The notes beneath the pieces were generated by a model, which worked only from the letters and a program-made list of their open reading frames with translations, had not been told where the DNA came from and did no database searches. Below are positions 4,902-58,419 of a DNA stretch of 64,000 nucleotides, one piece after another (within the stretch, counting starts at the first letter, position 1; every line of letters begins with the position of its first letter). Source of the DNA: Amphiscolops sp. MND2022. Lineage: Eukaryota. The DNA lies in contig OZ076409.1 of assembly GCA_964187785.1 (NCBI GenBank), positions 25,422,001 to 25,486,000 on the forward strand, in the 5' to 3' direction. The position numbers and the translations under genes were made by a program.

Positions 4902-6201
4902 CTAGATAAAAAAAGTTGAAATCTTGATTTCCATAAAAAATTAAAAACTTTTAATTGTGAGTAATGAGTACAATTTCAGATCATTGAAGTAAGTTCTATT
5001 GCAGTACGTTTGGAAGAATAGAAGCTCTACATTAGATAACAGTTACTGATCAACTAACTTGGAGAACATTTGTTTTTTATGTGAAAAAATGTTTTCGAAC
5101 TGAATCAATGGACCTGAAGAAATTCAATATGATAGAAGTTGGGCAAATAAGGGTTTATTCGAATGCGCTGTTCTAGATGTTCGAAGACCGATTTTTTATA
5201 CGCATTTTTTACACATTGCATTTTGATGCAATAAAGGAAAGTATCTTAAGACGTATCCTAATTTTTTTACCAGGACATTGCGTCAAATTGTTTCTGACTA
5301 AATTTTAAACTCAATTACTAAGCTACCATCCATTCGTGTATAATTACTAAGCTACCATTCAATGGTGTATACCAACCAATATGCGCGAGTTGCCAGCCAG
5401 TAAATGTAAAAATGTTTAGAAAATGTGAAAAAAGTGTAGAATTGGATTTTTTTCAAGGAAGTACGGAAAGTAGGGAAAATCTGGAAGCTGAATTATTTTT
5501 GAAATTTGTCTCAACGACTGATTATTAGAGCAACGAAAGAAGACTGTCAAACATAAACGGATTTTAGGCTGCTTCCTGGACTTCATCTAAGCTTTCTTTC
5601 AGTTGGCGGTTGATTAGTTTCTAACTTTTCTGAGCTGAATAGGCCAGAGTTCAAAGCATTGTATAACACATTAGGTGGGATTTGAATCAATTGCAACTCG
5701 CGGCTAACGGTTAAAAGCTCGACCAGAAAGTAGCGTAGGATTCATTTTCACGGCTGGAAAGCTATCGTAACAAAGAGACGGAACGGATTAAAAATGTGTC
5801 TTCAAAAGAACTTGATGAATTGAAATCTGAAAAAATTGGGCGAGTTTTTTGGATAGTATCTGAAAGACGCTATGAAAGATTTCCTCGGAAGGTAAAGAAC
5901 CAACTTCATGGATAACAAATGCCTCTAAGTATATTTTTTCAAAGCTTCTCTGAATCTGAAACGAAATAAAAAGTGTGGAATTTGGGCTGAAAGCTTTCTC
6001 TAGATACGTCTGTGGCACTAAAACTCTTTTGGATAAAAATCGATTGCTAAAATAATAAGCCAGGTGTTTGAGATGAATTTGTTGATAAGGTAGCTCTAAT
6101 TTTAATTGAGCAACTTTGTAGCAACATGAGCAACAGGCGCTTAACTGAATACACTACAATGCCCAGATTAACTTCATTCAGGATTATTTCACTCTCCCTT
6201 C

Positions 6202-6306
6202 AGTAGTATATGAATTGCTGATCCTGGCCAGCCGGACCATCAAAATTAAGCATATTTTCAAGGCAAACCATCAAAACCTAGCGTTTTTTCATAACTGAAA
6301 AAATTA
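6202..6306 (+). repeat. Left terminal inverted repeat of Polinton
   Basis: agtagtatatgaattgctgatcctggccagcc...caaaattaagcatattttcaaggcaaa...tagcgttttttc is the reverse complement of ~13550-13654. Confidence 0.95.
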
Positions 6307-6727
6307 ATAACTTTTTGGTATGGAGGATGAGAATGCGAAAAAAATTTTCAATGCAATAATATTAAAATTTCTTGTAAAGCTCACAGCAAAGAAAAAATAC
6401 CAGACAGTGTACCAGACAGAGCTGTCTAGTATTTTCTAATACCCGACAGAGCTGTCTAGTATTTTCCAATACCAGATAGAGATGGTTCAGTATTGAATTC
6501 AGTATTGTTTGATACGTTTTCAACAGCCAGTTCATGAAAAAATAACTGTTAAATGAAACATGCGAAGCGAACGAAGTTGTATGCGAAGCCAGTGTATTTA
6601 TCATTCAATGAATATGTTGAAAAAATTAAAAAACCTCAAATCCACAAAAGAAATATTTTTCACTTATTTCATGAAAAATATTTATTGAAAAATTTTAATT
6701 AAACTAATTTTTCTTTAATAAAAAGGA

Positions 6728-8706
6728 ATGTAAAATTGTAGAGTTTGTAATTTAAAATTTAAAAATCCTTCAAATCCGATCATTATAACTCAGTAAAACA
6801 TCTTGAAAAATAAAATCAAATATATTGTAAAAAATGTAATTTATACATGCCTCTATCAGATAAAGATTCACATTTAAGTTCAAATGATCACAGGAACAAA
6901 ACTAAACAATTACATGTTTGGTGTGAAGGTTGTGTAAAATATATATCTGATGAAACAACACACTTCCAAAGTGAAATTCGTTTACAGAAAAATCAACAAA
7001 GAAATTTTAGTGATTATGGTATGCGAAGCACCTCTGGTGTAAAAATAATGTGAAAGAAAAAACATAAATGAAATATGGATATATACTAAATAATTGTGAA
7101 TGAAAAAACATATACGAAATATGGATATATAAATAAATCCAAATATGAATACGCAGAGCGCCTACAGTAATCTTGATTATCACATAAATGAATTACTTAG
7201 TAAAAATTTTTGTTCCCGATATAATTGTCAATTGAGTTTTTTCGCTAAGGTCACAAAACACAACAACGGAAAAGAACACATGATTCACAAGTGGGTAAAA
7301 TCAGACTTTAATTATAATCACTCTATTGATTTTTATTCAAATAATAACACATTAATACAAAACCTAGACGACGAATAAATAGAAAGATCAGGTTTTCAAA
7401 TTCAAGAAATAGAAGAAGCTGTATTAGAAATATATAAAGTTAATGATATTCAAGCTAGTTTTTATGTTGAGTTACCAGAAAGTTATAAAAACAGTTAATC
7501 AATTTTAAATTTTAAAAATAATGATCAATTATGTTTTTCATGGTGTATCATAGCTCATCTTCACCCGGTTGAGGATCATAAAAATAGAACTTCAAATAAT
7601 GTTAAGTATATGCATACGTTGCATACCGAAGCCTTAGAATTCCCTATGAAAGTTAAAGATATACCTAAGTTCGAAAAAATGAATCCTAGAACTATAAATG
7701 TAATTGAACTCACTGGAACAGTTTTAACACCAATCCACATAAATACAAACTATGATTAACCACAAATAGTATTGTTATGGTCTGAAAATCACTATTGCCT
7801 AATAAAGTTGCATTGTCTAATAAATAAACATTCATACATGAAACATGTATGTAGATGTTTAACAGCATTCAGTTCACAACCGGTTCTAATTGATCATTTA
7901 GATCGTTGTCAAAAACAAAAAACAACCTATATCGCATTCAGTTGGAAGGATCACCCAAAGTTTGAAGACCACCACATGTAAGTTCCTATACCAGAAAGAG
8001 TATATGCAGATTTTAAATGTTTCGATCAACCCCAAAATACAGCAAAGCTGGCTTCGCATGCCGAACCGCATGACCCAAATAATCCCAACGTGTTGTTTAA
8101 ACAAATTCCAATTGCAGTAGGATTTTATCTTATTTCACAATTTGGAAATCAGTATTACTCATACTTCGGCGACGGTTGTGTAAAATGGTTTGTAAATGAA
8201 ATGTTGACACTAGAAAAACTTGCAAATACCTATTTCCAAACAAACTTAGAATTACAAATAACTCCTCAAGAAGAAGAATCATTTTAACTTGCAGAAGAGT
8301 GATGGCTTTGCGAAGAATCTTTTGATTCACTTACACAAAATACTAAAGTAAGAGACCACGATCATCTTACTGGACATTACCGAGGAGCAGCCCATTCTAA
8401 ATGTAACATAAATGTAAAACAAAAACAATCAAGTTTTATTCCAATATTTTTTCCTAACTTTTTTGGGTATGATTGTCATATTTTATTTGAACAGCTCTTA
8501 ACACAAGCTTTCAAAAAATTCCAAAGTCAATGGAAAATTATGTTAATGTACAAGTAGGTTGTTTAAGGTTTCCAGATTCATACCGTTTTTTAAGTAGTAG
8601 CTTGGATAACTTTGTTAGGAGTATAAACAGTTTCCCAATAATGCAAAGTGCCTTTGGAATGTATGAATTAACTAAAATGAAATTGGGTTATCCTTAAGAA
8701 TACTTT
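6728..8706 (+). pseudogene. Protein-primed family B DNA polymerase, N-terminal part only (Zn-finger-like, terminal-protein region, endonuclease VII-like insert, exonuclease start)
   Basis: Fragments NNDQLCFSWCIIAHLHP, LEFPMKVKDIPKFEKMN, KVRDHDHLTGHYRGAAHSKCN, IFFPNFFGYDCH (Exo II-like) and YP*EYF at ~8690. Sequence then becomes non-coding, with no polymerase palm motifs. Multiple stops and frameshifts. Confidence 0.85.
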
Positions 8707-8854
8707 TATTGGGTTTGATTTATTAGTTTTTCTGAGTAAAATCACTAAGCAAATTTATTAAGAGCACATATTTTCACTCGGTTTTGTTTTCTACACCTGA
8801 GAAGTTAAGCCCTTAGTGAATTTGCTCAGTGACTTATTGATTTTTTTGAAATAA

Positions 8855-9085
8855 ATGAAGTGTTTAATTTGTGATAAAAATAGCGAAACTTCGTTGTGTG
8901 ATGATTGTAGTAATAAAAAAGGGTGTAAGGACTGTAATGATTTGGAAACAGATTTTAGTAAGCATAAAAACAGTAAAATATATAGTACATGTACAGAATG
9001 TTCAATAAAAAAGCAAAATATGAATTTCGCAATGAGGAATTCAATAAAACATAATTATCAAAACATATCAAGAAGCTGCATTTAA
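8855..9085 (+). CDS. Small Cys-rich (four CxxC pairs) putative zinc-binding ORF of the Polinton; possibly the N-terminus of the ATPase gene
   Basis: CLIC, CDDC, CKDC, CTEC in a 76-aa ORF directly upstream of the ATPase. Confidence 0.5.
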   Translation: MKCLICDKNSETSLCDDCSNKKGCKDCNDLETDFSKHKNSKIYSTCTECSIKKQNMNFAMRNSIKHNYQNISRSCI

Positions 9086-9218
9086 ATGATACTAAAGTTA
9101 AAAATGTTTATAATGATGAAAATACTATAAAAAATAACAACAAAAGAATATAAATAATTATAGTGATGAAAAAATTATAATCAGCGATAATCATAATAAT
9201 GAAAATACTGAAGATGCT

Positions 9219-9818
9219 TTGCTGTCTAATAGAACATTAATAGTTGGTCCATCATTGTGTGGTAAGACCCATTTGTTAATAAACAAATTAGAAATAATGC
9301 TCTTGAATAACCCTAAAAAACAAATAAAAATAATAACTAGATCTCCGGAACAATACGAGAATACAGCTCTGCTGGCCTTCGGTATACAATTTGAAGACGT
9401 TTCAGTGAAAGACGATCTGGAAGATAGAACAATACACGATTTTCAAAACTGTTTTGTTGTGTTTGATGATATGTTGGATAGTAATAAAAAACTAATAGAT
9501 CCCTTTTTTACTAGGGGAAGACAGTGATTTAATTGTTAATTATTTATCACGGTCATATTTTGATTTACCTAAACGAACAATTAGAAACAATTCAAAAACA
9601 ATAATTTTACTTCAACAAACCTTGAAAGATATAGAGACATTGCTGGGTTTGATATGTCGTTTGATGAATTCAATGAAATATACAGAGAGGCATGGAAAGA
9701 AAAATATATTTATTTTTTAATGAACAGGTTGGAAAATAAAATTGGTAAAAAATATGGGATTTGTAATGAATCTAATCTGGAGTATAAAATATTTAATCCA
9801 CGAACTGATCCTTTCTAA
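9219..9818 (+). pseudogene. A32/FtsK-like genome-packaging ATPase
   Basis: Walker A RTLIVGPSLCGKTHLL, Walker B CFVVFDDML and FFTRGR Arg motif. After a frameshift: YLSRSYFDLPKRTIRNNS; stop TAA at 9816-9818. Confidence 0.9.
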
Positions 9819-10776
9819 CTGAAAAAGCCTGTGATGTTTTGGTGTTGATTTGTTGTAATACATTCATATTCCAGGAGTTTATCAATAACTGCTATGATTT
9901 GTTCACTAAGCATAGGATTATCATCACCTCCTATTTTTTCTAGCACGATTAACTTGAGTTGATCAGCAAGCTCATCTGGATCTGATGGAAGGAAAACAAA
10001 TTTTAATTCATTTCATAATTAGGATAGTTGATAAGGAATCTCTCGATATACATAGAGAATCAAATTTTTAATGAAATAATGTCGCTTTGATATTTTGTCT
10101 CAATAATTTATCTTATATTTCATTCAATTAAATAAATTATTAATTAGGTTCAAGTTTTGTGGTTGCGAGTCTAGCTGTGCAATACTTATAAAATATGAAA
10201 GATCCGGATCATTTAAAATATTCGTGTTACCATTCTGGTAGGTTAGTGTTGAACCTTTGACTTGTACTAGTTGCGGATTGTTGGGGTTAATTGTGAGTAA
10301 ATTTGAATAACCTTCTTCAGGTTCTAAACTATATTGACTTCTGTTTTTATCATTAAGCAAATTAGAAACTGTCCTAACTATACTAAAATTAACTGTATTT
10401 GATTTAACTAGGTTAGTAAGAACTTGATTATTACGATTTGTAATTTCATCATATTCTATTCTTTCTTTATTCGATTTCTGTGAATTTTTATTCAAAGCGT
10501 TACTCAATTCTCGTATTACTCTAGTTTGGCCTTGTATTGCTTGTGTTGTTGTTTGGGTAGAATCACGTAATGCTTGTATCTGCTTTCCAGATTCTAGCTC
10601 TGTTTGGTTTTGGCTTTGTTTCTGATTTTCAGTAATGGGTTCAAAAACTTCTTCCATGTTGTAATGAAAGTCTTGATTCCCAAGTTTCTCTTTCAATCTT
10701 TCTTGGCGGAGTAGAGATTTGTTTCTTGCAATGTTTTCAACTTTTCTAAATCATCAAGATTTTGAATTGAATACAT
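9815..10776 (-). pseudogene. Polinton-type ORF of unknown function (coiled-coil N-terminus, DPxEL..QLKL C-terminal motif)
   Basis: ORF 10124-10696 plus frameshifted ends. C-terminus LPSDPDELADQLKLIVLEKIGGDDNPMLSEQIIAVIDKLLEYECI resembles a motif I recall from Polinton accessory ORFs. Confidence 0.6.
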
Positions 10777-10829
10777 AATATATTTAGTATTCATAAGAAT
10801 TTTGAATTTAAATTTAATTATTGTGATTC

Positions 10830-11257
10830 ACTCAAATACAGGCCTTTAACCAGCAAACCTTAAAGTTTGTATAAACCATTTCCTTGATGAACAAACTTTA
10901 TAATACCAGGAGCAGTTGCAGCTATCAATCGAAGATTTTTACTAGCTGCTGCAGTTCCAATATTTGCTGCTATTTCGAGTGCTCTTCCAGGATTAATTAT
11001 TGTTTTTTTTCCGACACTTTTAGCAGATGTAGGTTTCGTAGGTGTTTAAAACAATCACCCAATCTTCCTGCTTGTATAGTTTGATCTGATACTATAAGTT
11101 ACCTATTTCTTTCACACGTTACACAAGTACCTCCAAATAGTTGAACTGGCATGCCAGTTTTTTTATTTTCAGTAATATCTCCACGAATATTTGTGGTAGC
11201 GGAACAATGTTTTCCACCAACACGATATGAAACATTTTTAAAATTACTAAAGCTCAT
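10830..11257 (-). pseudogene. Small Polinton ORF: Zn-ribbon-like N-terminus plus amphipathic LGDxFK segment (possible virion core/membrane-active protein)
   Basis: Manual translation: MSFSNFKNVSYRVGGKHCSAT...GTCVTCERNR*...QTIQAGRLGDCFKHL, frameshift, then NPGRALEIAANIGTAAAS...GNGLY. Function is inference only. Confidence 0.45.
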
Positions 11258-11332
11258 TTATTAGAAAAAGTTATTGATTTTTGTCAACTTCGCACAAACC
11301 TTTGGTTTGCAAAACTTTGGTTTGTATCAGAA

Positions 11333-12294
11333 TTAAATCTTAGCGATTTGAATTGTAAATGTTATTGTTTCGGAGTTTTAAATCAACCGGGCTATGATGC
11401 GTCCTCAAGGAAAAATTGAATATTATTCAGTCGTGTTTTGTTTATCTTTTTGTACAAAATAATATTGGGATCTTCTATAATTTCATATCCTGGAGGTGCT
11501 TCTAAAACAAAGTTTGTTCTCGTATACCATTAACATTTGAACCATCTACACTATCACACTTGAGATGAACTTTGTCTGTGGCTGTTATCATTACTGGTTT
11601 TTCTGATTTACGAGTTCCTTCTGAGTAGTCAGTGTTTAAAAATCCTAAAAAGTTGTTAAGTTCAGAATTGAAATGTATGCTAAAAGAAGTTATTGGAACT
11701 GATTTCATTGATATTGTGTCTGCTTGTATGTTAAGTTCAAAATCAAAATTAGAATCAGAAAGTATTTGTTCGATGGTATTATTTATATCAACTAATTTAA
11801 ATACTCCTGGTGTTTACTCAATTTCAAAGAAATCATTTTTAATTCCAAAATCAGGAATAATATTGGTTGTTTTGTCTTGAACAATTTGAATAATTATTTT
11901 CTTTAGTTGATCAAAATCTTTTCTAGTAAATTTCTTATTTTCAGAAGAACTATCAACTATAAAATTATTACTTGTTTTATACAGAGGTTTTATATAAACA
12001 CTCAACATTCATTACTAAATGAGTGTCAACGTTTAATGATTTGAGTTATTCATCTTTTAGAAGAATTTTGAGTTAATTGTTGATGGGAGTTTTTTTATAA
12101 ACTGGATTATATACTTCTAAACTTGTTACTCCCATCATCCATTGTTCTGGCAGCTCCAAGGGAACATCGGATGAAAAAGATTCTTTTTGTTTAGTCATTT
12201 TGCATTCTAGAGTTTCCTGAGGTTTTGAATGTGTTGACTCAACAAATTCTTGATTAGATTTTGCAATACTCAATATAAGATTCTTTTTTATCAA
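11333..12294 (-). pseudogene. Minor capsid (penton-like) protein of Polinton
   Basis: N-terminal PQETLECKMTK..VPLELPEQWMMGVTSLEVYN and C-terminal TDKVHLKCDSVDGSNVNGIRE..PPGYEIIEDPNIILYKKIN..IQFFLED..PVD match the Polinton minor-capsid pattern as I recall it. Frameshifted. Confidence 0.65.
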
Positions 12295-12393
12295 TAATTA
12301 CAAAATTTGATAGATCCATTTATTAAGAAAAAAAATTGTTTGAATCCAGTAGCGGATATGTTATTTATAAATTCTTGGTTGTGTTTTGATAAT

Positions 12394-12916
12394 TTATTTT
12401 GGAAAACTTTTCGGATTTTTTTTGTTATCTTTATTATTTTCAATCTCATGCGGGTCCAGCTTTGCTGTATTCGGATAATCTGGTTGTACCGGGGGGCAGC
12501 TTATTTGTATAATTTTGAATTGAGCTGAATAAGTTTTAATTTTTTCAATTTTTAAATTTAAATTTTGATGATATAGATTCAAAACTGCGTTTTTAAAACC
12601 TAAAGTTTGAGTGAGATATAACACATACAAACAATACGCTGCACAAAAACTATCATTTTTCTGAATTTGATATTCTGAAAAAAGACCTTTTTTTATTTGT
12701 TTCATTAAGTTTACTGGAGGTGGGCATCCATATTAACGAAATAATTTTGATTTGAATACATAACCCAATGTGTTCCTTTAGTTGAATGTAAGTTAACTAT
12801 TTCACAAGAATCATGAATATTTACTTCATTAAGTATTTCTTTCATTTTTACATTAGAACTTGCTTCATTTTCAATCCATATTTAGCAACAAAATCTTTGA
12901 ATGATAAATATTTCAT
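12394..12916 (-). pseudogene. Adenain-like cysteine maturation protease
   Basis: KGTHWVMY (catalytic His), YF..YGCPPP, and QIQKNDSFCAAYCLYVL (oxyanion Gln and catalytic Cys). Frameshifts at ~12735 and ~12870. Confidence 0.85.
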
Positions 12917-13549
12917 TCAAGAAAAAAAATTTTGATGAAGTTTTTTTCTACGCTTTGCTTGTAATAGTTATTTTTCATCGATTTCAATTTTTTTAATATT
13001 GTTAAAATGGGAAAAACCGATTTTTACACCTGTTTTGACACCTGGTATTTAGTTGGTTGATTGTATAAAAAGCCCTCAGAACCAAAATTTGTGTAACTTT
13101 TAATTATCTACTACTTTTGTTTCTAACGTTTTTCATTAAAACTATTTCCTGTTGAGACATTGAACAATGTTATTTTTCCCATGTTGAATATGTCTGCATT
13201 AACATTAAGTATAAACGAATTTGTTTTAAAATTTATCGAGATATTTGTATCAGTTTTCTCAAGTTTGAGATTTCTGTATCGGTTTTTTCATTTGTCTCGG
13301 AAAATTCATATTTCTCGAAAAATTCAACATGTGACGCACTTGGTTCGACTTGATGTTATTCCAGTTTTTTATTAATACCAAGCACTTGTTTCCACTTGAA
13401 TGCTACTTTCATTCCAAAAATTGTTGCTACACAAATTTTTTCTATTACCATCCACAGCAACATAGAGGTTGGTTAGTTTATTACTTCTTGTGACAAACAT
13501 TTTCAAAATTTGCGTAATGAAAATTTTTGTTCAGTGATTTTTGATTGTG

Positions 13550-13654
13550 TTAAATTTTTAGTTGCGAAAAAACGCTAATTTTTGATGATTTGCCTTGAAA
13601 ATATGCTTAATTTTGTTGGTCTGGCTGGCCAGGATCAGCAATTCATATACTACT
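13550..13654 (-). repeat. Right terminal inverted repeat of Polinton
   Basis: ...ggctggccaggatcagcaattcatatactact followed by TSD cccttc. Confidence 0.95.
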
Positions 13655-13920
13655 CCCTTCCACCAAAAATTTAACCAAAAAAGGGCAAAAACTTTCTCGA
13701 CACATTAGGTGACGTTAGTTAAGACATGGTACAGTCTCGAAGATAAAGTCCTGAAACAAATCTCAGAAGACAAAACAGGATCCCCAATAAACAGAAAGAT
13801 GCGAACTTTCTTTCAGTGGGATTAGAAAAAAAGGCGCACTTAATTGAAAAGGACGATCCTAGTATTGGACGGATTCATGATCTTGAATAATACTCTAATG
13901 TTCTGAGCATTGTTGAGCAG

Positions 13921-15225: not shown

Positions 15226-15429
15226 GAGAAGAAGATGCCACTAAGAGGATGAACCTGCCATAGTACCTGCCAGTTGTCTATCGTAAAAAGCCTTACAGTA
15301 TGAACATTAGTTGAAGTTGTATTCTATGATACAGTATAGCTAACAGTTCGTATGTTAACGATCATTACTTTGTGTTGATTTGAATTACTTTTATTCCATT
15401 CTTCTTACTCCAAGTTCTCCGTAATAACA
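15226..15429 (+). repeat. 5' LTR (lacks the terminal T of TG)
   Basis: gagaagaagatgcc...ccgtaataaca; the 3' LTR starts tgagaagaagatgcc. Confidence 0.95.
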
Positions 15430-15448
15430 TGGCGCAGTCAGCAATCTA

Positions 15449-18400
15449 ATGGACAACCCAGACCCAAACACCTCAGAACGATCCGACCAACAAGCCGCAA
15501 ACCAGACGATAATGAACCAGACGACGGCAAATAGACTGGAGAAGAACAAATATAAAATTCCGATTTTATCGGATAGAGAAACGGATCTCACCAAAATAAA
15601 CCCACGAATGTGGTGGGAGCAGATTTCGGAATATATACACCTCACATATAACCGAAATCTAGAAGAACTGATGGATCAAGGCGTTGACCAAATGGACCCG
15701 CATACGGTGTATCATATCAAAGGAGACGTCATCTGGGCTCTAGGCCCCAAGGCCAAACATGAAATTATGAGAGGACAATGGGGCAAAGAGCTAAAAGACA
15801 TTGATCTCCCAGAAATGCTGAAGCTATTCAAGAAAACATTCATACCAGCAAGGAATGTATTCCACAGCCGGGCACAATTCTTCAATATCCAACAAGATGA
15901 CAACGAAACTTTAGACGAGTACTGGAAAAGATTAGTGGACATCGAGCGGAAATGTGAATTCAACAGCATCACACCGGAAGAAATTATTACATACAAGTTT
16001 GCAGCAACAATTAACGACAAAAAAGCCCGAGACAAATTTAGAAAAGGACCGCTGAAACTTCGAATGGTACTCGAAACCATCGAACAAGACAATTACAACC
16101 GCAAATACGGAGACAAAAAAGCAAACAAACGACCCCGAAAAATCAAACTGGAAAGTTCATCAAGTGAAGAACAAGTCGCCCACACACAACCAATACGGAA
16201 ACAAAAAACCGCCGAAACGTGGAAGAAGAAAATGCCAAACCGTATTTGTCGCTTTTGCCGTAAACCCAATTGGTCAATGGAACATATTTGTCCAACACGG
16301 AGAGCACAGTGTAATAAATGTAAGAAGATGGGCCACTTCGCCAAAGTGTGCAAATCCAAAACCGTCAGCCTGATACAAAAAGAACTGCCAACGGACAGCG
16401 ACACCGAATCATGGCCTGAAATTGACCACATCCAATCCGTCAACGGCATAAATCGGATCGATTTCTACAAAGCGATACTATTGGTCCAAGGACAGCCAAT
16501 AGAATTCAATATTGACACTGCCTCTCCGATAACGATAATACCGCCTATAATTATTACAGCGGAAATACACAAAACCACAAAAAGTTTTGTAGATGTAAAT
16601 AAAAACCCGATAAAGTTCAAAGGCGAAACCATGGTTGAAGTAAAAACGGAGAAAAGCAAAATAACACTTCCCATATTAATAACCGAGAACAAAAACACCC
16701 AACCCTTATTGGGACTGGATTGGCTGGACAAACTAGAAATCGGGCTACAAAGGAACACGAACACGAACATTATCAGACACATCGAAACATACGAAAGAAG
16801 ACAGAAGATCGTAAAAGAATATGAAGACCTATTCAAAAACAACCAAACGATCAAAGATTTGGCTATCGACATCCAACTGAAAAAAGACACAAAGCCGATA
16901 CAACAAAAAGGACGACCAGTACAGATACATTTTCAAAAAACGGTCAAAAATGAGTTGAAGAAACTAATCGAAACTGAACACCTGGAAAAAACAAACAATA
17001 CCACAGAAAATTGTTTTGTCTCACCGGCTGTCATAACAATGAAGAAAGACAAGTCCGTGAAAATTGCTCTCGATTCAAGAAAACTGAATGAGGCATGTGT
17101 CAAAAGAAAAGCGACAATGCCAAATATGGAAGAACTGATCAGCAAAATATCAGCGGAAATCACCCGAAGCGACGGAGAAATCTGGATGTCAAAGATCGAC
17201 TTGGATTACGCTTACGGACAAGCAAAACTAACCGCGGAGGCAGCCAGACAATGTGTATTTTCGATAATTGGCGGTGATTTCACCGGCCATTACCGTTTCA
17301 AGAAAGGATTCTACGGACTGTCGGATATTCCCACCGTTTTCCAGGAACACATCAACAAAGTGCTAGAATTTAAAACACCGGTCTGGCTAGATGACATTAT
17401 ATGTGTAACAAACGGAACAATCGATGATCACGAACGAGAAATTCGGGAAGTACTCACAAAGCTACAAAACGCCGGTTACAGGGCAAGTGAGAGGAAAACT
17501 GAACTATTCAAACCGGAGCTAACTTGGCTGGGTTATCACATCGATCAAAAAGGAGTGAAACCGATAAAAGATAGAACGGAAGCAATAACAAAATTGACGG
17601 CTCCAAAGAATGCTAAAGAACTAAAATCTTTTCTCGGCTCAATACAACACCTAGCGAAGTTCATCAATAACCTGTCCAAGAAAACAGACAGAATGAGGAG
17701 TCTGTTGAAGAAAGAAACCCGCTGGGAATGGACACCCGAAATTGACGAAGACTTCGAGAGTTTAAAGAAAGAAATAACTGAACCCCCATGCCTGGCCCAC
17801 TTTGACCCGAAGAAAGAAAATTACGTGACGACAGATGCATGCAACACGAGGCTCGGAGCGACACTATAGCAGAAGGAAGGAAAAATTTTCAGACCAGTCG
17901 CGTTTGCTAGCAGATTTCTCACCGACTGTGAAAGAAAATATGCTATCAATGAGTTAGAACTGCTAGGGGCATTATGGGGGCTAGAATACTTCAGGTATTT
18001 TGTGTACGGAAAAAGGGTAAATTTGCTAACAGATCATCAAGCGCTGCAGACTCTGTTAAAACGGAACAGGGCACATAAACAATATAGCGCCAGGTTAACA
18101 CGGTGGTTAGACAGATTAAGCCATTTTGATGTAAATGTTCATTATACCGCTGGTAAAAACATCCCATTGACGGACTACTTAAGCCGGCATCCGATCGTAA
18201 ACACCGATGAAAGCGCAGCGGAGAAAAACATAAGCGGTCAAAACGAAGCGGAATCCGAAGAAGAGTTCGTAATAAACCAAAAACACGGCTTATTTGATTT
18301 CATTCAAACGAACGGAAGCATAAAACGATTCACAGAACGAACCAAGCCGAGACAGAAAATCGACCAATCACAACGTGTAAACGTGAACAAAATAGACAAA

Positions 18401-20734
18401 CTCATTTGCTCAAAATTTCGAAAACCACTGAACAGTGTTAATCAAATCACATCCGTAAATTTTTCAAATAGACTCGCAAAACCATCAAATATGGACAAAG
18501 TAAACGGAATCGACATGCACTTCATATTCAAGAAAAGAGGGCACTCACCAGACACTCTCAAACTCTGGACAGAGAGAAAAAGACTACTGAAACCTGAAAA
18601 AATGAGAATCGTGGGAAAGGGGACAGACAATGAAAGACTTCAAGCATGCCGACCCTCACAGCAAGTACGAAAAAGAATTGTTGAACTAAACGTGCAAATA
18701 TACAACAGATTCTTTAATTTCTGCGAAACGCTGGGTACGACGCCGCTGAAAGAGTTCCAGCAAAACAACTACGAATCCTGGATAACACAGTCATCTGACA
18801 CCGAAAGCCAAACGAGCAATGTCAGACAAGAAAAATGTCCCACAAACGCCATCAAAAAGTTTCGGAAACACGAAACAATAAACTTAATCCGACTGAAACC
18901 AACCGTCAAGACAAACATCCTAGACGATGAACACAACGAGCGGACAGAGGAAACCATCAAAAAGGCCGAAAAAGATTTTGCACTCGACTTGCCGATGTTA
19001 GTAGAAGAAACGGCGAGAGACACAAAAATTCTGAATGCTATCACTGCCGTCGAAAAGAACCAGATTGAGGAGTTTTTTTACCCTTATCGGCCACACAGAC
19101 ATCACCTGACAACCTGATTTGGCCTACTTTTCTATAACGACAAGATCGTTATACCTGAAGCAATGAGAAGCACAATCATCGCCATGCTCCATCAAGGCCA
19201 CCCATCAGCCACAAAGATGGACCAATCGTCCGCAGCCTTCTGGTGGCGCGGTCTATATCGGGAGATAAAGGAGAAAGCAGAAAACTGTCCCAGCTGCAGA
19301 TCGTCAGGTAAGAATCTAACAACGCAATTACCGTCAACGGAAAAAAAAACCATTTAGAAATTTTGTCTGAACCGAATCGAGAAATACAATTGGACTTTGC
19401 TGGTCCAATAAAATCAAAGTCTCGCGGCGATGTATATTTTTTAGTCGCAGTCGACCATTTTAGCAAGTGGCCAACCGCCAAAATTTGTAAAAACACCGAC
19501 ACACGGACAGTTTTAAAATTTTTAACGGAATATTGTTCAGATAACGGAACACCGCGGAGCGTACGCACCGATAACGATAGCTGTTTTAAAAGTAACGAAT
19601 TCGAAGAATTTTGTAACCAAGAAATAATAAAACGCATTAGATGTACAACGAATCTACACACAGGTACCGGCCAAGTAGAAAGAACGATACGGACAATTAA
19701 ATCATTAACTAGAGTAAATATGGCGGACGGCCTAACATTTGAAGAAGGTGTTAAATTGGCGATTAAAACAATTAGACAAACTCCGCATAGCAAATTGAAT
19801 ATGACGCCATTCCAAATGCATTACGGACGTAAGCCACGCACGGCAATAACCAATTTGATCGGCCGACCAGAATGTCTTCTCTCTAATTGGAAAAAAATTA
19901 TTGACCAATTACGTTTCAGCACAACCCACTGAGCTACAGATGTTCACAATTAATGACTCAGAGGGAGAATTGGCAGATTATCTGATCCTTAACGACTCGA
20001 AGAAAAGAAATAGATCGGTAAGCAAGGAATTTAAACAGTATCAATTTTTCGAAAAAGAAAACAAACCAAATGCAATGAAATGCAGATTTAAAACCAACAA
20101 AATACTGACGGCCGTGAATGAAACTAAACACACTATAACAACGTCAGATGGAAAAATAATCCATAAAAAATTAGCGTCGAAACCGATAAAATTTCAGTTG
20201 CCGAAAAAGCCGGAGGAAAAGAAGAAACCAACAAATCGCTGTGTCAGATGCGGAAAATTTAGCCAAGGAAAGTACTGTGACACCCACAAACGAGTGTACG
20301 GTACCACTGACGAAACAAATGAACCGGGATGCAGCTACACCCTTCCAACAATGCCAGAGAAAAGGTCAACTTACAGCGATGTCATAGAGCCGAGCAACGG
20401 ACAAGACGTATCGACGGAAGAAAAGGAACCGCAAGCAAGCAACACCACCGCCACAGCGGAAACGCAACGGCACGAAGAAGAAACCGCACCCGGGATACAT
20501 ACGCCACCACCGTCTACGCCGGTACAGTGTAGCACCAGTTATGGTACGCAACCAACACAACAGGAAGGCGATCAGCAGACGCCAATACGAGCCACCGCAA
20601 GTACCGAAGCTACTTCGAAGAAAAGGACAGCAAGCCCTAGAAGAGGTAACTTAAAAATAGTAGACAAAAAGGAACCAAAAAACACCATAAAATACAAACA
20701 GAGTCACCAGACCTTCGTAGATCAAATAGAATAA
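15449..20734 (+). pseudogene. gag-pol polyprotein with two premature stops and at least two frameshifts
   Basis: Zn knuckle CNKCKKMGHFAKVC; protease IDTAS; RT SKIDL..AY, FYGL, WLDD; RNaseH TDAC; integrase HQGH..CPSC, LDFAGP, DHFSKW, RTDN, VER. Stops at 17867 (TAG) and 19115 (TGA); frameshifts at poly-A runs near 19345 and 19895. Confidence 0.95.
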
Positions 20735-35971: not shown

Positions 35972-36380
35972 TTAAATGGCAAGCGAACTGCCCGATCAAA
36001 AGCGGATGAAGGTGCGTGGTACAGTCTTACGAGGCTACGAAACTCACTTTGAGAACAAACGAAAAGATTGAAAAAGCTTGATGAAAATTTGACAGGTACG
36101 GATAAAGATTTATCCGTGGAAATTTTGCCGAAAGATCATCAAACCTGTTCTGTAAGTTTTGCTAGATTCGTGAATTGTTGTCAAGACTTTGATAGGCTTT
36201 CAAAATTTTAACTTCCTTTGTCAGGGGTGGTTTTTCATCATGGTTAATGTTTGAGCAGTCAAAAAACAAGACCTGAATAAGAACAGGGTTAGAGTACGGA
36301 GAATTCATACCAAGATGGAAACATTAAAACCAAGGATTCGAAAAAAAACAAGACACAGACCAAAAACGTTTATACCTGAC

Positions 36381-39300
36381 CTGGAAAAATTCGTGTGAAA
36401 GAGCAACGAAGCTCGACAGTAGAGCTAGTGCTAAAAGATGTTGCAGGCGAAGACGTGCTGCTTGTGATTGAGCTAGTCGTCGACGAGGTTGTATATGATG
36501 AAGTTCTGCTTGTGGTAGAGCTGGTTGTTGAGGAGGTGGTTGGTGATGATGTGCTACTGGTTGTAGAAGATGTTGTTGACGAAGTCGTGGACGAAGTTGT
36601 AGGTGACGAAGTGCTGCTTGTGGTGGAGCTGGTTGTTGAGGATGTGGTTGGTGATGATGTGCTACTGGTTGTAGAAGATGTTGTTGACGAAGTCGTGGAA
36701 GACGTTGTGGGTGATGAAGTACTGCTTGTGGTAGAGCTGGTTGTCGAGGATGTGGTTGGTGAAGATGTGCTACTGGTTGTAGAAGATGTTGTTGACGAAG
36801 TCGTGGACGAAGTTGTAGGTGATGAAGTGCTGCTTGTGGTGAAGCTGGTTGTTGAGGATGTGGTTGGTGAAGATGTGCTACTGGTTGTAGAAGATGTTGT
36901 TGACGAAGTCGTGGACGAAGTTGTAGGCGATGAAGTGCTGCTTGTTGTGGAGCTGGTAGTTGAGGATGTTGTTGGTGATGATGTGCTACTTGTTGTTGAA
37001 CTTGTTGTTGATGAAGTTGTGGGCGATGAAGTGCTGCTTGTGGTGGAGCTGGTTGTTGAGGATGTCGTTGGTGATGATGTGCTACTGGTTGTAGAAGATG
37101 TTGTTGACGAAGTCGTGGACGAAGTTGTAGGTGATGAAGTGCTGCTTGTGGTGGAGCTCGTAGTTGAGGATGTGGTTGGCGATGATGTGCTACTTGTTGT
37201 TGAACTTGTTGTTGAAGATGTAATTGATGAAGTTGTTGGCGAAGAAGTGCTGCTTGTGGTGGAGCTGGTTGTTGAGGATGTGGTTGGTGATGACGTGCTA
37301 CTGGTTGTAGAAGATGTTGTTGGCGAAGTCGTGGACGAAGTTGTAGGTGACGAAGTGCTGCTTGTGGTGGAGCTGGTTGTTGAGGATGTGGTTGGTGATG
37401 ATGTGCTACTGGTTGTAGAAGATGTTGTTGACGAAGTCGTGGAAGACGTTGTGGGTGATGAAGTACTGCTTGTGGTAGAGCTGGTTGTCGAGGATGTGGT
37501 TGGTGAAGATGTGCTACTGGTTGTAGAAGATGTTGTTGACGAAGTCGTGGACGAAGTTGTAGGTGATGAAGTGCTGCTTGTGGTGAAGCTGGTTGTTGAG
37601 GATGTGGTTGGTGAAGATGTGCTACTTGTTGTAGAAGATGTTGTTGACGAAGTCGTGGACGAAGTTGTAGGCGATGAAGTGCTGCTTGTTGTGGAGCTGG
37701 TAGTTGAGGATGTTGTTGGTGATGATGTGCTACTTGTTGTTGAACTTGTTGTTGATGAAGTTGTGGGCGATGAAGTGCTGCTTGTGGTGGAGCTGGTTGT
37801 TGAGGATGTCGTTGGTGATGATGTGCTACTGGTTGTAGAAGATGTTGTTGACGAAGTCGTGGACGAAGTTGTAGGTGATGAAGTGCTGCTTGTGGTGGAG
37901 CTCGTAGTTGAGGATGTGGTTGGCGATGATGTGCTACTTGTTGTTGAACTTGTTGTTGAAGATGTAATTGATGAAGTTGTTGGCGAAGAAGTGCTGCTTG
38001 TGGTGGAGCTGGTTGTTGAGGATGTGGTTGGTGATGACGTGCTACTGGTTGTAGAAGATGTTGTTGGCGAAGTCGTGGACGAAGTTGTAGGTGACGATGT
38101 GCTGCTTGAAGTGGAGCTGGTTGTTGAGGATGTGGTTGGTGAAGATGTGCTACTGGTTGTAGAAGATGTTGTTGGCGAAGTCGTGGACGAAGTTGTAGGT
38201 GATGAAGTGCTGCTTGTGGTGGAGCTCGTTGTTGAGGATGTGGTTGGTGATGATGTGCTGCTTGTGATTGAACTTGTTGTTGAAGATGTAGTTGATGAAG
38301 TTGTTGGCGAAGAAGTGCTGCTTGTTGTGGAGCTGGTTGTTGAGGATGTGGTTGGTGATGATGTGCTACTGGTGGTAGAAGATGTTGTTGACGAAGTCGT
38401 GGACGACGTTGTGGGTGATGAAGTACTGCTTGTGGTAGAGCTGGTAGTTGAGGATGTTGTTGGTGATGATGTGCTACTTGTTGTTGAACTTGTTGTTGAT
38501 GAAGTTGTGGGAGATGAAGTGCTGCTAGTGGTGGAGCTGGTTGTTGAGGATGTGGTTGGTGATGACGTGCTACTGGTTGTAGAAGATGTTGTTGGCGAAG
38601 TCGTGGACGAAGTTGTAGGTGACGATGTGCTGCTTGTGGTGGAGCTGGTTGTTGAGGATGTGGTTGGTGAAGATGTGCTACTGGTTGTAGAAGATGTTGT
38701 TGGCGAAGTCGTGGACGAAGTTGTAGGTGATGAAGTGCTGCTTGTAGTGGAGCTGGTTGTTGAGGATGTGGTTGGTGATGATGTGCTGCTTGTGATTGAA
38801 CTTGTTGTTGAAGATGTAGTTGATGAAGTTGTTGGCGAAGAAGTGCTGCTTGTGGTGGAGCTGGTTGTTGAGGATGTTGTTGGTGATGATGTGCTACTGG
38901 TTGTTGAACTTGTTGTTGAAGATGTAGTTGACGAAGTTGTAGGTGACGAAGTGCTGCTTGTGGTGGAGCTGGTTGTTGAGGATGTGGTTGGTGAAGATGT
39001 GCTACTGGTTGTAGAAGATGTTGTTGACGAAGTCGTGGAAGACGTTGTGGGTGATGAAGTACTGCTTGTGGTAGAGCTGGTAGTTGAGGATGTTGTTGGT
39101 GATGATGTGCTACTTGTTGTTGAACTTGTTGTTGATGAAGTTGTGGGAGATGAAGTGCTGCTAGTGGTGGAGCTGGTTGTTGAGGATGTGGTTGGTGATG
39201 ATGTGCTACTGGTGGTAGAAGATGTCGTTGACGAAGTCGTGGACGAAGTTGTAGGTGACGAAGTGCTGCTTGTGGTGGAGCTGGTTGTTGAGGATGTGGT

Positions 39301-42300
39301 TGGTGAAGATGTGCTACTGGTTGTAGAAGATGTTGTTGACGAAGTCGTGGAAGACGTTGTGGGTGATGAAGTACTGCTTGTGGTAGAGCTGGTTGTTGAG
39401 GATGTGGTTGGTGATGATGTGCTGCTTGTGATTGAACTTGTTGTTGAAGATGTAGTTGATGAGGTTGTTGGCGAAGAAGTGCTGCTTGTGGTGGAGCTGG
39501 TAGTTGAGGATGTTGTTGGTGATGATGTGCTACTGGTTGTTGAACTTGTTGTTGAAGATGTAGTTGATGAAGTTGTTGGCGAAGAAGTGCTGCTTGTGGT
39601 GGAGCTGGTTGTTGAGGATGTGGTTGGTGATGATGTGCTACTGGTGGTAGAAGATGTCGTTGACGAAGTCGTGGACGAAGTTGTAGGTGACGAAGTGCTG
39701 CTTGTGGTGGAGCTGGTTGTTGAGGATGTGGTTGGTGAAGATGTGCTACTGGTTGTAGAAGATGTTGTTGACGAAGTCGTGGAAGACGTTGTGGGTGATG
39801 AAGTACTGCTTGTGGTAGAGCTGGTAGTTGAGGATGTTGTTGGTGATGATGTGCTACTTGTTGTTGAACTTGTTGTTGATGAAGTTGTGGGAGATGAAGT
39901 GCTGCTAGTGGTGGAGCTGGTTGTTGAGGATGTGGTTGGTGATGATGTGCTACTGGTGGTAGAAGATGTCGTTGACGAAGTCGTGGACGAAGTTGTAGGT
40001 GACGAAGTGCTGCTTGTGGTGGAGCTGGTTGTTGAGGATGTGGTTGGTGAAGATGTGCTACTGGTTGTAGAAGATGTTGTTGACGAAGTCGTGGAAGACG
40101 TTGTGGGTGATGAAGTACTGCTTGTGGTAGAGCTGGTAGTTGAGGATGTTGTTGGTGATGATGTGCTACTGGTGGTAGAAGATGTCGTTGACGAAGTCGT
40201 GGACGAAGTTGTAGGTGACGAAGTGCTGCTTGTGGTGGAGCTGGTTGTTGAGGATGTGGTTGGTGAAGATGTGCTGCTGGTTGTAGAAGATGTTGTTGAC
40301 GAAGTCGTGGAAGACGTTGTGGGTGATGAAGTACTGCTTGTGGTAGAGCTGGTAGTTGAGGATGTTGTTGGTGATGATGTGCTACTTGTGGTTGAACTTG
40401 TTGTTGATGAAGTTGTAGGTGATGAAGTGCTGCTTGTGGTGGAGCTCGTTGTTGAGGATGTGGTTGGTGATGATGTGCTGCTTGTGATTGAACTTGTTGT
40501 TGAAGATGTAGTTGATGAAGTTGTTGGCGAAGAAGTGCTGCTTGTGGTGGAGCTGGTTGTTGAGGATGTCGTTGGTGATGATGTGCTACTGGTTGTAAAA
40601 GATGTCGTTGACGAAGTCGTGGACGAAGTTGTAGGTGATGAAGTGCTGCTTGTGGTGGAGCTCGTTGTTGAGGATGTGGTTGGTGATGATGTGCTACTTG
40701 TTGTTGAACTTGTTGTTGAAGATGTAGTTGATGAAGTTGTTGGCGAAGAAGTGCTGCTTGTGGTGGAGCTGGTTGTTGAGGATGTGGTTGGTGATGATGT
40801 GCTACTGGTGGTAGCAGATGTCGTTGACGAAGTCGTGGACGAAGTTGTAGGTGACGAAGTGCTGCTTGTGGTGGAGCTGGTTGTTGAGGATGTGGTTGGT
40901 GAAGATGTGCTACTTGTGGTTGAACTTGTTGTTGATGAAGTTGTAGGTGATGAAGTGCTGCTTGTGGTGGAGCTCGTTGTTGAGGATGTGGTTGGTGATG
41001 ATGTGCTGCTTGTGATTGAACTTGTTGTTGAAGATGTAGTTGATGAAGTTGTTGGCGAAGAAGTGCTGCTTGTGGTGGAGCTGGTTGTTGAGGATGTCGT
41101 TGGTGATGATGTGCTACTGGTTGTAAAAGATGTCGTTGACGAAGTCGTGGACGAAGTTGTAGGTGATGAAGTGCTGCTTGTGGTGGAGCTCGTTGTTGAG
41201 GATGTGGTTGGTGATGATGTGCTACTTGTTGTTGAACTTGTTGTTGAAGATGTAGTTGATGAAGTTGTTGGCGAAGAAGTGCTGCTTGTGGTGGAGCTGG
41301 TTGTTGAGGATGTGGTTGGTGAAGATGTGCTACTGGTTGTTGAACTTGTTGTTGATGAAGTTATGGGCGACGAAGTGCTGCTTGTGGTGGAGCTGGTTGT
41401 TGAGGATGTGGTTGGTGAAGATGTGCTACTGGTTGTAGAAGATGTTGTTGACGAAGTCGTGGAAGACGTTGTGGGTGATGAAGTACTGCTTGTGGTAGAA
41501 CTGGTAGTTGAGGATGTTGTTGGTGATGATGTGCTACTTGTTGTTGAACTTGTTGTTGATGAAGTTATGGGCGACGAAGTGCTGCTTGTGGTGGAGCTGG
41601 TTGTTGAGGATGTGGTTGGTGAAGATGTGCTACTGGTTGTAGAAGATGTTGTTGACGAAGTCGTGGAAGACGTTGTGGGTGATGAAGTACTGCTTGTGGT
41701 AGAGCTGGTAGTTGAGGATGTTGTTGGTGATGTTGTGCTACTTGTTGTTGAACTTGTTGTTGATGAAGTTGTAGGTGACGAAGTGCTGCTTGTGGTGGAG
41801 CTGCTTGTTGAGGATGTGGTTGGTGATGATGTGCTACTGGTTGTAGAAGATGTTGTCGATGAAGTCGTGGACGAAGTTGTGGGCGATGAAGTGCTGCTTG
41901 TAGTAGAGCTAGTCGTCGACGATGTTGTTGGTGACGAAGTGCTGCTTGTTGTAGAGCTAGTCGTAGATGACGTCGTTGGTGATGAAGTGCTGCTTGTTGT
42001 CGAGCTCGTCGTGGATGATGTCGTTGGTGATGAAGTACTGCTTGTTGTAGAGCTAGTCGTAGATGATGTCGTTGGTGACGAAGTGCTGCTTGTTGTAGAG
42101 CTAGTCGTAGATGATGTCGTTGATGACGAAGTGCTGCTTGTTGTAGAGCTAGTCGTAGATGATGTCGTTGGTGACGAAGTGCTGCTTGTTGTAGAGCTGG
42201 TTGTTGATGAAGTTGTTGGCGAGGAAGTACTGCTTGTTGTAGAGCTAGTCGTAGATGATGTCGTTGGTGACGAAGTGCTGCTTGTTGTAGAGCTAGTCGT

Positions 42301-42961
42301 AGATGATGTTGTTGGTGATGAAGTACTGCTTGTTGTAGAGCTAGTCGTAGATGATGTCGTTGGTGACGAAGTGCTGCTTGTTGTAGAGCTAGTCGTAGAT
42401 GATGTCGTTGGTGATGAAGTACTGCTTGTTGTAGAGCTAGTCGTAGATGATGTCGTTGGTGACGAAGTGCTGCTTGTTGTAGAGCTAGTCGTAGATGATG
42501 TCGTAGGTGACGAAGTGCTGCTTGTTGTAGAGCTAGTCGTAGATGATGTCGTAGGTGACGAAGTGCTGCTTGTTGTAGAGCTAGTCGTAGATGATGTCGT
42601 TGCTGACGAAGTGCTGCTTGTTGTAGAGCTAGTCGTAGATGATGTCGTTGGTGATGAAGTACTGCTGGTTGTAGAGCTAGTCGTAGATGATGTCGTTGGT
42701 GACGAAGTGCTGCTTGTTGTAGAGCTAGTCGTAGATGATGTCGTTGGTGACGAAGTGCTACTTGTTGTAGAGCTAGTCGTAGATGATGTCGTTGGTGACG
42801 AAGTGCTGCTTGTTGTAGAGCTATTCGTAGATGATGTCGTTGGTGATGAAGTACTGCTTGTCGTAGAACTTGTCGTGGATGAAGTGGTTGGTGATGATGT
42901 GTTGCTTGTAGATGGTGGGGTTGTTGGTAAACGTGAAGCCGTTGAAATGCTGTTCGTTGAT
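36381..42961 (-). CDS. Mucin PTS exon 2 (6,581 nt; ~2,190 aa Ser/Thr/Pro repeats)
   Basis: Acceptor ttttctag at 42962-63, then STNSISTASRLPTTPP, (TTSSTTSSTSSP)n, and TVELRCSFTRIFP. Phase-1 donor G|gtcagg chosen because it matches the next exon; an alternative donor at 36376 is phase 0. Confidence 0.88.
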
Positions 42962-43076
42962 CTAGAAAAAACTCAAGTGTACCCGGCTGCAGAATTATAG
43001 GTATGTTACGTGTGACCGTTTTGCAGTTACCCACGTTTTCAAAAATGGCTGTTTTTGCGCACAAATTATTACTTAC

Positions 43077-43130: not shown

Positions 43131-45818
43131 CTAAAAAATAAATGTTCCTCAAAACTTGCGAAGTCTCAGTGTACCCTCTTGGTGATACAAATTTCACTAG
43201 CTTTCAATATTCTCCGTGAGTAGTGTTTTCGCGAGTAATCAGCGATATATTATGAAGATGTTTTTCAAACCGCTAGTGTTCACTGTTTTGATAACAAAAG
43301 ATAAAGAGATGCATTACAGCAGCTGAACTGGCAACGTTTTCAGTGCTAAAATTTTCCGATTAGCCATATTACCTAAATCCTGAATCGTTTTTATTACAAC
43401 TTTACCGATTTAGGTCTCACTGCTGAAAATCAAAAATATGCTGAATTAGTTAGTTTCTCTTTAAAATGTGCATTCGGATCACGCTCAAGACTTTGTAAAT
43501 GTTTTCAAATTAAACTATACTGTCGGAGTTTTCGTCAGTCATATTGAAGTTTTCGTCGAAGGAATGGCAAAAATTGACCAAAAATAAACGTTACATCCGA
43601 ATTAAATGTCATGAAGATGATGGGAATGGAACATCCGAATCTAACCGGAGTCAAACGTTTGTATCTTTTCCAAGTTTTGGAAAACTAATTCATGCATTTA
43701 CTGCATTAAGAGTTCCAAAATTACTGTTCGAAGAAGCATCCGTCGTGCATTCGTCCTCGCAAGATATAATACAGTTCGGGAAGGACGTTAACTATTCAGA
43801 TATGGGGCATTTTTATCGTTATATAATAAAATAAAAACGGTAATATTGTTCATCTGGAAACTACTGACCACACTGACCAATCCAACACACATTCTGGCGA
43901 AACGTAAAATGATACGAACATGACATGACGTCAAAAACTTGGGCTCAACGCGTTTCCCACTGTTATGCACGTTTGATTGGAAAAAGGGCAACTTTATTGT
44001 TGCAATTGAAAAGATACAAAAGCTCGACATAGATCTTATTCGATTTTTTTATTATTTCTGGCAACACCTAAAACAACTTCGGGTGAAATTTTGAATAAAA
44101 CTTGGATACAAAGTAATCGATTCGGTTAGAGAACGTTTTTTATCGAAACAGGCATTGTGCCGGTGACCAACATTTTTATGTAAATTCGAACAGATACAGA
44201 ATCTAGACACTCAAGAGGTACGAAATCCCACCATGCGCGACACAATTTGATTGAACCAATATCAAAAACGCGCACGTCGGAAAAAGTCTTAAGTGGGAAC
44301 TTTTCAGGTCAAAAACACGTTTCTTTCCGAAAACCTTGAGAAAAGAAAAGACCCTTCAGTACCAAAACATTTGCCCATGAATGTAGCACAATGCCCAAAT
44401 AAACCAAAATAACGAATTTCTTCAGCAAAAAACTTTTGCAATTACTGAGTTAACAATTCTGCGACCTTGTTTTGATGCTGGCAAAAGCGTTCTCGCTTTT
44501 TTGGTTTTTAAAGTTCAGGGAAAATTACCTTTTGAGTGGGCTCAAGGTCTAAATTACCTCCAAATATGCCAGAAGGCTGTTTTTGATACTTTTACATTAG
44601 TAGTTGAACTTCGAGAAAAATGTTTCTGAACAAAACTTGTTCGTTTAACTGCCGCAAAACCAAAGCACGTTTTTAGCTAGCAAACGGGGGATGCATTACG
44701 ATACATATGCCGCAAAAGTGGAATTTACCATCAAGTGTCAAATGTATTTTCCGTAAAACGAGAGCGAACCGTATTCTAGTCAAACAGTGCAGTGTGTTCA
44801 TTGTGAACTTTGATGCACAGTGTAATCAGAAATTGCGGATTGTGGTCATTGAGCGTAATTAGAGAAAAGTGGAAACCAGTCAAGAATTTTCAACTTACAA
44901 TTGGCTCAATTCTGTAACGTGTATAAAGCGTAAATTAGTCAATCTTTGACTAGAATTCACTTTTCGAGTACTTAGAAATATCATTCACTGAAAACAGTGA
45001 AAGTGATCAAAGTTTGACTACTTTACACCAAACAAACGATTCAAAAACGATTTATTTAACAAAAACAATTCACATTGTAATTACAGTCGGTTATTGGTGT
45101 GACTGCTTTACACTATTCGCTTTGACTGGTTTTGAATAATTTCACTAATTTACATAATTGCATTCGTGAACTCACATGGGTAGGAATAGAAAAGAGCCTT
45201 AATGTGTTATGTTTTGTGTCAAAAATGTTGCGCAGTGCTTAATAAACCCAAAGACCTTTCGTCTCTTTTCTCTTTTTGCAAACAAAAAATTTTTGGTCTG
45301 GGGCGTCACTCGAACCCACATACTCCTGCTGTCCCCAGCCGGATCACCAGTTATATAACTCCACGGTAACCTCCAGGCCAAGTGGAGAGTACTTTCTAGC
45401 CTTCCACCAGCATATGGTAGTTAGTTGCAAAAATTGTGAAAAAAGTTCCCGTGCTGAAGGTATTTTTTTTTCAAAAGAAAACGAGAAAATATTGCAATAC
45501 CAGTGCGCATCTCAATTTTGGTCTTTCCTTTATCTTTGCAAGCATAAAAACATGAATTGATGTCGGAATCGAACCCACGTACTCTTGTTTCTCAGGCCCC
45601 GTCACCTGAACTGCTAAACCAAAATGAGCGGAGCAAGTTAGCAAGTTAGTTACAAGATATCATAGAAAGAACTTATTGAACTTTTGGAAACGTGTCAAGA
45701 CGCCAGTCTTTGGAAACGAATAAAGCCGCCTACAAAAACTTGCTGGGAGATCGATGCTCATTGTCTAAGCTATCTACTTTAAACAACAATGAGTTAAAGT
45801 GATTTAGGAACATAATAC

Positions 45819-57800: not shown

Positions 57801-57929
57801 GTTGAAGATGTTGTAGGGGATGAAGTGCTACTGGTTGTAAAACTAGTTGTGTGTGATGTGGTAGGTGGTGTGCTACTGGTAGATGGAGGCGTTGGAAATC
57901 TTGATCCAGTCGAGGTGGTTCCTATGGAG
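45819..57929 (-). CDS. Mucin PTS exon 1 (12,111 nt; 4,037 codons of Ser/Thr/Pro repeats)
   Basis: Acceptor ttttag at 57930-31, donor ag|gtatta. Same frame as the 3019-aa ORF. All antisense ORF fragments share one frame, implying no frameshift. Confidence 0.92.
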
Positions 57930-58419
57930 CTAAAATTGTTTTGTTAACTGTTTCATCGTTGTTTCTTCATTTTGATGTGGAGTTCTGTCAAAAAGACTGG
58001 TTTTGAAATAACTTTTGTTTTGTTATTGGTGGTAGTAAATACGGCAGTACCTAGGTGAACTCAGGATAAATGATAAATATGATAATATAAACAATCCTAG
58101 CAGATGTTCAGTAGGCTTTTTCAAGAGCAAGTACTTGTGCCTAGTCAACTTTTTGGAAGTAAGCTGCTCACAATTTGAAGGCTTTCCTACAGTTTTGGTT
58201 GCTTCTATGATTCAAAAAGATTCCCATTCAAAATTTTTAGAAAGAAATAAAAATTGTAAAATATGTCAAACAAGCATTAGTTCAAAAAGTCATTAGTCGT
58301 TAATTTTGCAAGCCATTGATGTGTTACCAGACAGAAGCGTCCCAGACAAAGACTACATGGGATTTGGTTGAAACACGAAACTAAACACTTTGAAAGCTAT
58401 TTAAAATGATGTTACTTAC

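Follow-up and report, generated by a model that had tools for sequence, protein, structure and literature searches.

Polinton/Maverick elements are bounded by terminal inverted repeats (TIRs) carrying an (AGT)2//(ACT)2 end motif and by a 6-bp target-site duplication (TSD) made by their rve integrase (PMC8097293, PMC8502044, PMC4028283). In vertebrates, intact Mavericks are reported to span 12.7-24.6 kb, and 96% of 3,511 Maverick loci are described as degraded (PMC8097293). An element of this type was found in a 64,000-nt stretch of the Amphiscolops sp. MND2022 genome (contig OZ076409.1; G000:C1:25,422,001-25,486,000 in a genome of 1.07 Gb), hereafter referred to as the window, in which it occupies 7,453 bp (6202-13654), starting with AGTAGT and ending with ACTACT. 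With a probability that we estimate at about 85%, it represents a single, decayed member of a family of ~14-kb Polintons, and would have inserted at full length with its 6-bp duplication, decayed neutrally and later lost its centre.

The missing centre and its junction

The initial annotation described a compact element without integrase, major capsid or polymerase core, and proposed either a non-autonomous or satellite derivative or a full element deleted after insertion. No trace of the integrase, the major capsid, a second ATPase or the PolB core was detected in the window copy, the best tblastn E-value being 0.22, and family-built profiles for the missing genes reached at best 2.6 bits on this copy versus 230 bits for a penton control. 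The absence of these genes is thereby confirmed; in particular, the rve integrase and the double jelly-roll major capsid that define an autonomous Polinton are both lacking from the window copy and present in its relatives.

These relatives are numerous. Genome searches, in which the best 40 candidates of each list were scored, returned 386 candidates with the TIR and 1,387-2,137 with internal pieces of 0.5-1 kb, while looser TIR patterns gave 11 matches each, too few for a census. Copies with paired TIRs measure ~14.8 kb (C2:41.29 Mb), 13.7 kb (C2:58.25 Mb) and 12.0 kb (C2:43.50 Mb), with a further one of 16.6 kb (C4:33.07 Mb) that is enlarged by a 1,173-bp tandem repeat; such copies are collinear with the window on either side of position 8706/8707. 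At ten loci holding both flanks of this junction, the flanks are 6,401-6,922 bp apart in eight, and 2,669 and 8,425 bp apart in the two others. The interval encodes in relatives the C-terminal half of PolB, a 409-aa double jelly-roll capsid, two accessory open reading frames (ORFs), an rve integrase and a Pox_A32 ATPase, with Pfam matches of the relatives' open frames to the double jelly-roll-like family PF21738 (2.2e-22), to rve PF00665 (4.2e-9) and to Pox_A32 (1.8e-8). The integrase and the C-terminal part of the capsid both occur at a coverage of at least 80% in 13 of 20 stretches retrieved at the best flank matches. Adding the gap to the 7.45 kb of the window copy gives 13.9-14.4 kb and therefore the normal size of the family.

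Some variation in gene content was also observed within this family. Two stretches (L016 and L038) carry a near-identical ~1.34-kb gap between integrase and capsid, corresponding to C2:58,256,300-58,257,640 of the comparison copy, from which the two accessory ORFs are gone and which possibly marks a variant lineage. Internal tandem duplications with units of 1.2-3.7 kb in 2-5 repeats occur in L002, L015/L016, L055, L062 and L078.

The junction itself was encountered only once. When a 550-bp query spanning it was used, the window alone matched across and the other 39 matched one side only (best 40 of 2,137 candidates), and the same outcome was obtained with a 96-bp query (best 40 of 204). A degenerate pattern joining both sides, exact outside its N positions and with no mismatches allowed, had a single match in the whole genome. 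The proposal of a non-autonomous derivative whose PolB breakpoint near 8706 would recur at loci with different TSDs is thus not borne out among the candidates scored, and a unique breakpoint accompanied by full-length relatives, set beforehand as arguing against a satellite, is what was found. In 78 other fetched stretches, 13 different collinear gaps of 0.7-6.9 kb were present in 10 stretches, none of them sharing both breakpoints of the window. One other copy has a gap that, in reference coordinates, starts no more than ~10 bp from the right breakpoint of the window; it leaves 112 bases unaligned and stops 5.5 kb before reaching the other breakpoint. No clear microhomology was found at the junction, as judged from relatives that need not include the direct parent.

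Retained genes and their decay

The features of the window copy are as follows.

6196-6201: left TSD, CCCTTC
6202-6307 (+): left outer TIR, starts AGTAGT
6342-6560 (+): module b of the left inner TIR, including a 30-bp tandem repeat at 6410-6481; this module is missing from the right arm and 91% identical to copies at C5:57.97 and C2:80.08 Mb
6763-8706 (+): PolB N-terminal half, broken; aa 1-620 of a 1,256-aa relative, with a zinc finger and an endonuclease-VII-like stretch
8706-8707: deletion junction; relatives carry 6.4-6.9 kb here; no clear microhomology
8855-9818 (+): zinc-finger and P-loop (A32-like) ATPase, broken; one of two family paralogues
9812-10737 (-): homologue of a ~311-aa ORF, broken, no family found
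10869-11257 (-): homologue of a 133-aa basic ORF, broken, no family found
11336-12319 (-): penton (minor capsid) gene, broken; 342-aa ORF in relative
12559-12916 (-): adenain-like cysteine protease gene, broken; 131-aa ORF in relative
13004-13549: right inner-TIR modules (a, c2, c)
13550-13654 (-): right outer TIR, ends ACTACT
13655-13660: right TSD, CCCTTC

The remnants of PolB, ATPase, two unnamed ORFs, penton and protease form two convergent blocks, and tblastn from one full-length relative recovered all six at ~50-79% amino-acid identity, in agreement with the pPolB N-terminus, penton-like gene, adenain-like protease and small ORFs initially annotated. Because Pfam matches to the 22 short fragments of the window copy are weak (endonuclease VII, 1.6e-4; zf_UBZ, 8e-4), the gene names rest on the relatives. 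In the 1,256-aa ORF of the relative, which did not match Pfam DNA_pol_B_2 at E<=0.1, motifs that we take to be those of PolB lie at aa 769-1044, a region missing from the window copy. For penton and protease, no useful Pfam or PDB sequence match was obtained. The predicted fold of the 342-aa family resembles a penton, its top PDB match being the mavirus penton (E 4.7e-6, with a template modelling score of only 0.2), and the best viral matches to this model are minor capsid proteins; it was built from 60 sequences and has a predicted local distance difference test (pLDDT) score of 66, versus only 35 for a single-sequence model. The 131-aa ORF of the relative is placed by its features among adenain clusters, and its atlas neighbours carry PF00770 Peptidase_C5 (11% and 62% of members).

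The packaging ATPase of the initial annotation holds only in part. Two A32-like ATPases of ~340 aa each are encoded side by side in the family (e.g. L069:5266-6294 and L067:5648-6676). The paralogue that passes the Pox_A32 cut-off, and which has an N-terminal hydrophobic segment, lies in the missing part, whereas in the retained one a C2HC zinc finger and an Asn-rich linker are joined to the ATPase; it shares 29% identity with the former over 118 aa and does not match Pox_A32 at E<=0.01. An A32-like ATPase is thus present in the window copy, but since it is the zinc-finger-fused paralogue without a Pox_A32 match of its own, its designation as a packaging ATPase is uncertain. Overall, penton, adenain protease and A32-type ATPase are all represented by broken remnants, identified by fold, by atlas features and by paralogue identity, respectively. 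Programmed frameshifting in the ATPase, integrase or capsid was ruled out, other copies carrying each of these as a single open frame.

Lesions affect all six retained genes tested, with a total of ~17 stops and 19 frameshifting indels, these counts being alignment-dependent. Private changes of the window copy, scored at columns conserved among 22-28 other copies, amount to 77/1,036, 82/1,184 and 46/798 at codon positions 1, 2 and 3 (7.4, 6.9 and 5.8%; p=0.36), for an overall rate of 6.8%, and variable columns among relatives represent 30, 19 and 45% of these positions (p=1e-52). The family diverged under purifying selection, unlike the branch of the window copy itself. In private rate, this copy is 16th of 29 for PolB and 12th of 25 for penton, which is the median of decay among the copies sampled. 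The idea of a satellite that kept virion-maturation genes is therefore supported neither by the state of these genes nor by their private changes, which show no codon-position bias. Divergence between the outer TIRs (8/105, versus 13.8 expected if all private change were post-insertion, p=0.11) is compatible with most, or even all, of this change having occurred after insertion.

Termini and history of the copy

The termini, TIRs and TSD initially annotated are all present. Within the element GC is 27-31%, compared with 35-42% alongside. The exact duplication CCCTTC directly flanks both ends, a match with a chance of ~7e-5 for a 6-mer at a fixed flank, and its survival intact is expected with a probability of 43-63% at the estimated substitution rates. 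The outer TIR arms are identical at 97 of 105 aligned bases, with one gap. The (AGT)2//(ACT)2-ended TIRs and 6-bp TSD of a Polinton/Maverick are thus both found in this copy. The ends can be called intact as regards termini, outer 105 bp and TSD, but not further inwards, as symmetry is confined to the outer ~105 bp and the inner modules of the two arms are unlike.

In the family, TIRs are modular and extend up to ~0.7-0.9 kb, and in some elements the terminal core is repeated in tandem; the TIR of the paired relative at C2:41.29 Mb is ~706 bp long with arms 87% identical, in contrast to the 105 bp of the window copy. Module b occurs on the left arm only of the window copy, where it shares 91% identity with copies whose TIR is of another type, this identity falling again past ~6600; modules a, c2 and c, found at both ends in several relatives, occur on its right arm only. 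The switch of TIR type is located near 6560-6600, away from the 8706/8707 junction, which is not involved in this left-end event. The mixed inner TIRs suggest that recombination or conversion took place close to the left end, or else that the two arms lost reciprocal parts of a longer TIR of the kind seen at C1:62.25 Mb. Elsewhere, L049 (G000:C2:38,793,500-38,796,000) contains a ~2-kb copy, a candidate element by its sequence, with long inverted arms enclosing only protease/penton-end sequence.

Trees were built for two segments to the left and three to the right of the junction, using 15-22 of 27 rows. In these, the window falls into the same older, long-branched cohort (including C2:41.29 Mb), with mostly weak support near it, and the end branches of both its arms are 0.06-0.09. 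A chimera at the junction was ruled out: as both sides group with the same cohort, although mostly with weak support near the window, the junction is not a join of two subfamilies. The segment trees disagree, which suggests recombination among copies. A younger cohort stands alongside, in which branches are short, mostly 0.003-0.05, and open frames are long.

The scenario that we favour begins with a full ~14-kb Polinton that would have inserted via its own rve integrase, making the 6-bp duplication. The copy would then have gathered about 4-7% substitution free of selection, before one host deletion, closed by end-joining repair, took out about 6.5-6.9 kb of the centre; the present copy presumably does nothing. 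That insertion preceded deletion is inferred by parsimony from the single occurrence of the junction, the frequency of such gaps among old copies and the absence of any sign of selection. Post-insertion deletion of a full element, one of the two histories initially proposed, is supported by relatives that carry the missing 6.4-6.9 kb, by the unique junction and by retained genes that are pseudogenes.

Several observations weigh against this scenario. Best-40 scoring and the near-exact pattern might both overlook a second occurrence of the junction that has diverged. At C10:24.16 Mb, another copy lacks a comparable 6.9 kb of its centre and has lost a similar gene set, with breakpoints ~190 and ~570 bp off; its TIR is only ~73% identical to that of the window copy and the trees give no consistent sister relation. 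A second haplotype of the locus, and hence a longer allele, was not found in the assembly. The unequal inner TIRs suggest recombination in the history of this copy, and the divergence per TIR arm (3.8%) is somewhat below the private rate (6.8%), so that some change may predate insertion. Finally, one breakpoint lies exactly where the second ATPase gene ends, the upstream region of the next gene being kept whole, and polB-less insect polintons that seem still mobile are reported in a preprint (10.1101/2025.02.07.637071).

The last two points would also fit a one-off defective genome, in which an active element would have undergone the deletion while replicating, the short genome then being integrated a single time by an integrase acting in trans and decaying later. 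The cis-acting ends and TSD are both intact, as expected of such a genome, and inner TIRs of different family types are consistent with recombination among replicating copies. We nevertheless regard this history as unlikely, since only a single copy emerged from the junction searches, the TIR-type switch lies near 6560-6600 and not at the junction, both sides of which fall in one cohort, and old copies often have large internal gaps, so that a host deletion needs no extra assumption. Just as improbable in our opinion is its more explicit form, a helper-integrated recombinant with inner TIRs from two lineages, a homogenised outer 105 bp and prior loss of 6.5-6.9 kb of replication, integration and capsid genes; if true, this would be a germline record of a defective-interfering-like particle in an animal. 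Far less probable still is a true non-autonomous or satellite family, spreading with helper functions and keeping penton, protease and ATPase under selection: these genes are indeed among those retained, between intact ends, but no second copy and no amplified non-autonomous family were seen among the candidates scored, all six tested genes are broken with no third-position excess in private changes, and PolB is cut mid-gene, the retained genes being just those contiguous with the ends. An assembly artefact, with the centre collapsed or mis-joined, might be envisaged in so repetitive a family for a junction seen once, yet it is equally hard to sustain, as the nearest copies are only ~80-90% identical, too distant for collapse, the junction is without repeat and the left flank is single-copy.

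Other features of the window lie outside the element. A long terminal repeat (LTR) retrotransposon remnant (15428-20734, +), located 1.8 kb downstream, encodes gag, protease, reverse transcriptase, RNase H and an rve integrase that is unrelated to the Polinton gap. The minus strand has two very long open frames (36370-42972 and 45794-57943; 2,200 and 4,049 aa), which consist of 92% Ser+Thr with 12/36/108-bp repeats and are likely exons of a giant mucin-like gene.

Comparison with described Polintons

The window copy derives from the Polinton/Maverick (adintovirus) group, with which it shares end motif, TIRs and TSD, and its family encodes a probable pPolB, rve integrase, double jelly-roll capsid, penton, adenain-like protease and A32-type ATPase. 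At ~14 kb, the size of the family falls inside the range given for vertebrates (PMC8097293). The family differs by its two A32-like ATPase paralogues and by a gene order unlike the vertebrate two-module plan, and the window copy differs further in being without integrase, major capsid, PolB core and one ATPase, its tested remaining genes being broken. By the tests applied here it qualifies neither as an autonomous element, nor as a member of a non-autonomous family, nor as a satellite. A limited literature search found no paper devoted to non-autonomous Polinton families. A recurrent junction would have meant Polintons mobilised in trans without integrase and polymerase, for which the polB-less mobile polintons of the preprint cited above offer a partial precedent.

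By itself the copy is of little importance, one fossil among hundreds of decayed copies, but it illustrates cleanly how a copy that has lost its interior and kept its ends can pass for a satellite element. The Lepidoptera polintons described in that preprint (10.1101/2025.02.07.637071) have the same TIR-bounded form without complete polB; these are, as presented there, several highly similar recent insertions that appear mobile, whereas the window copy is single and old, and also without integrase and capsid. The degraded "genomic fossil" Mavericks reported in PMC8097293 show the same stops, frameshifts and lost coding capacity, and the window copy differs from them in that its outer TIRs and TSD survive, so that the deletion is easily mapped. 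Most likely, it is an ordinary genomic fossil of this kind and not a new satellite element.

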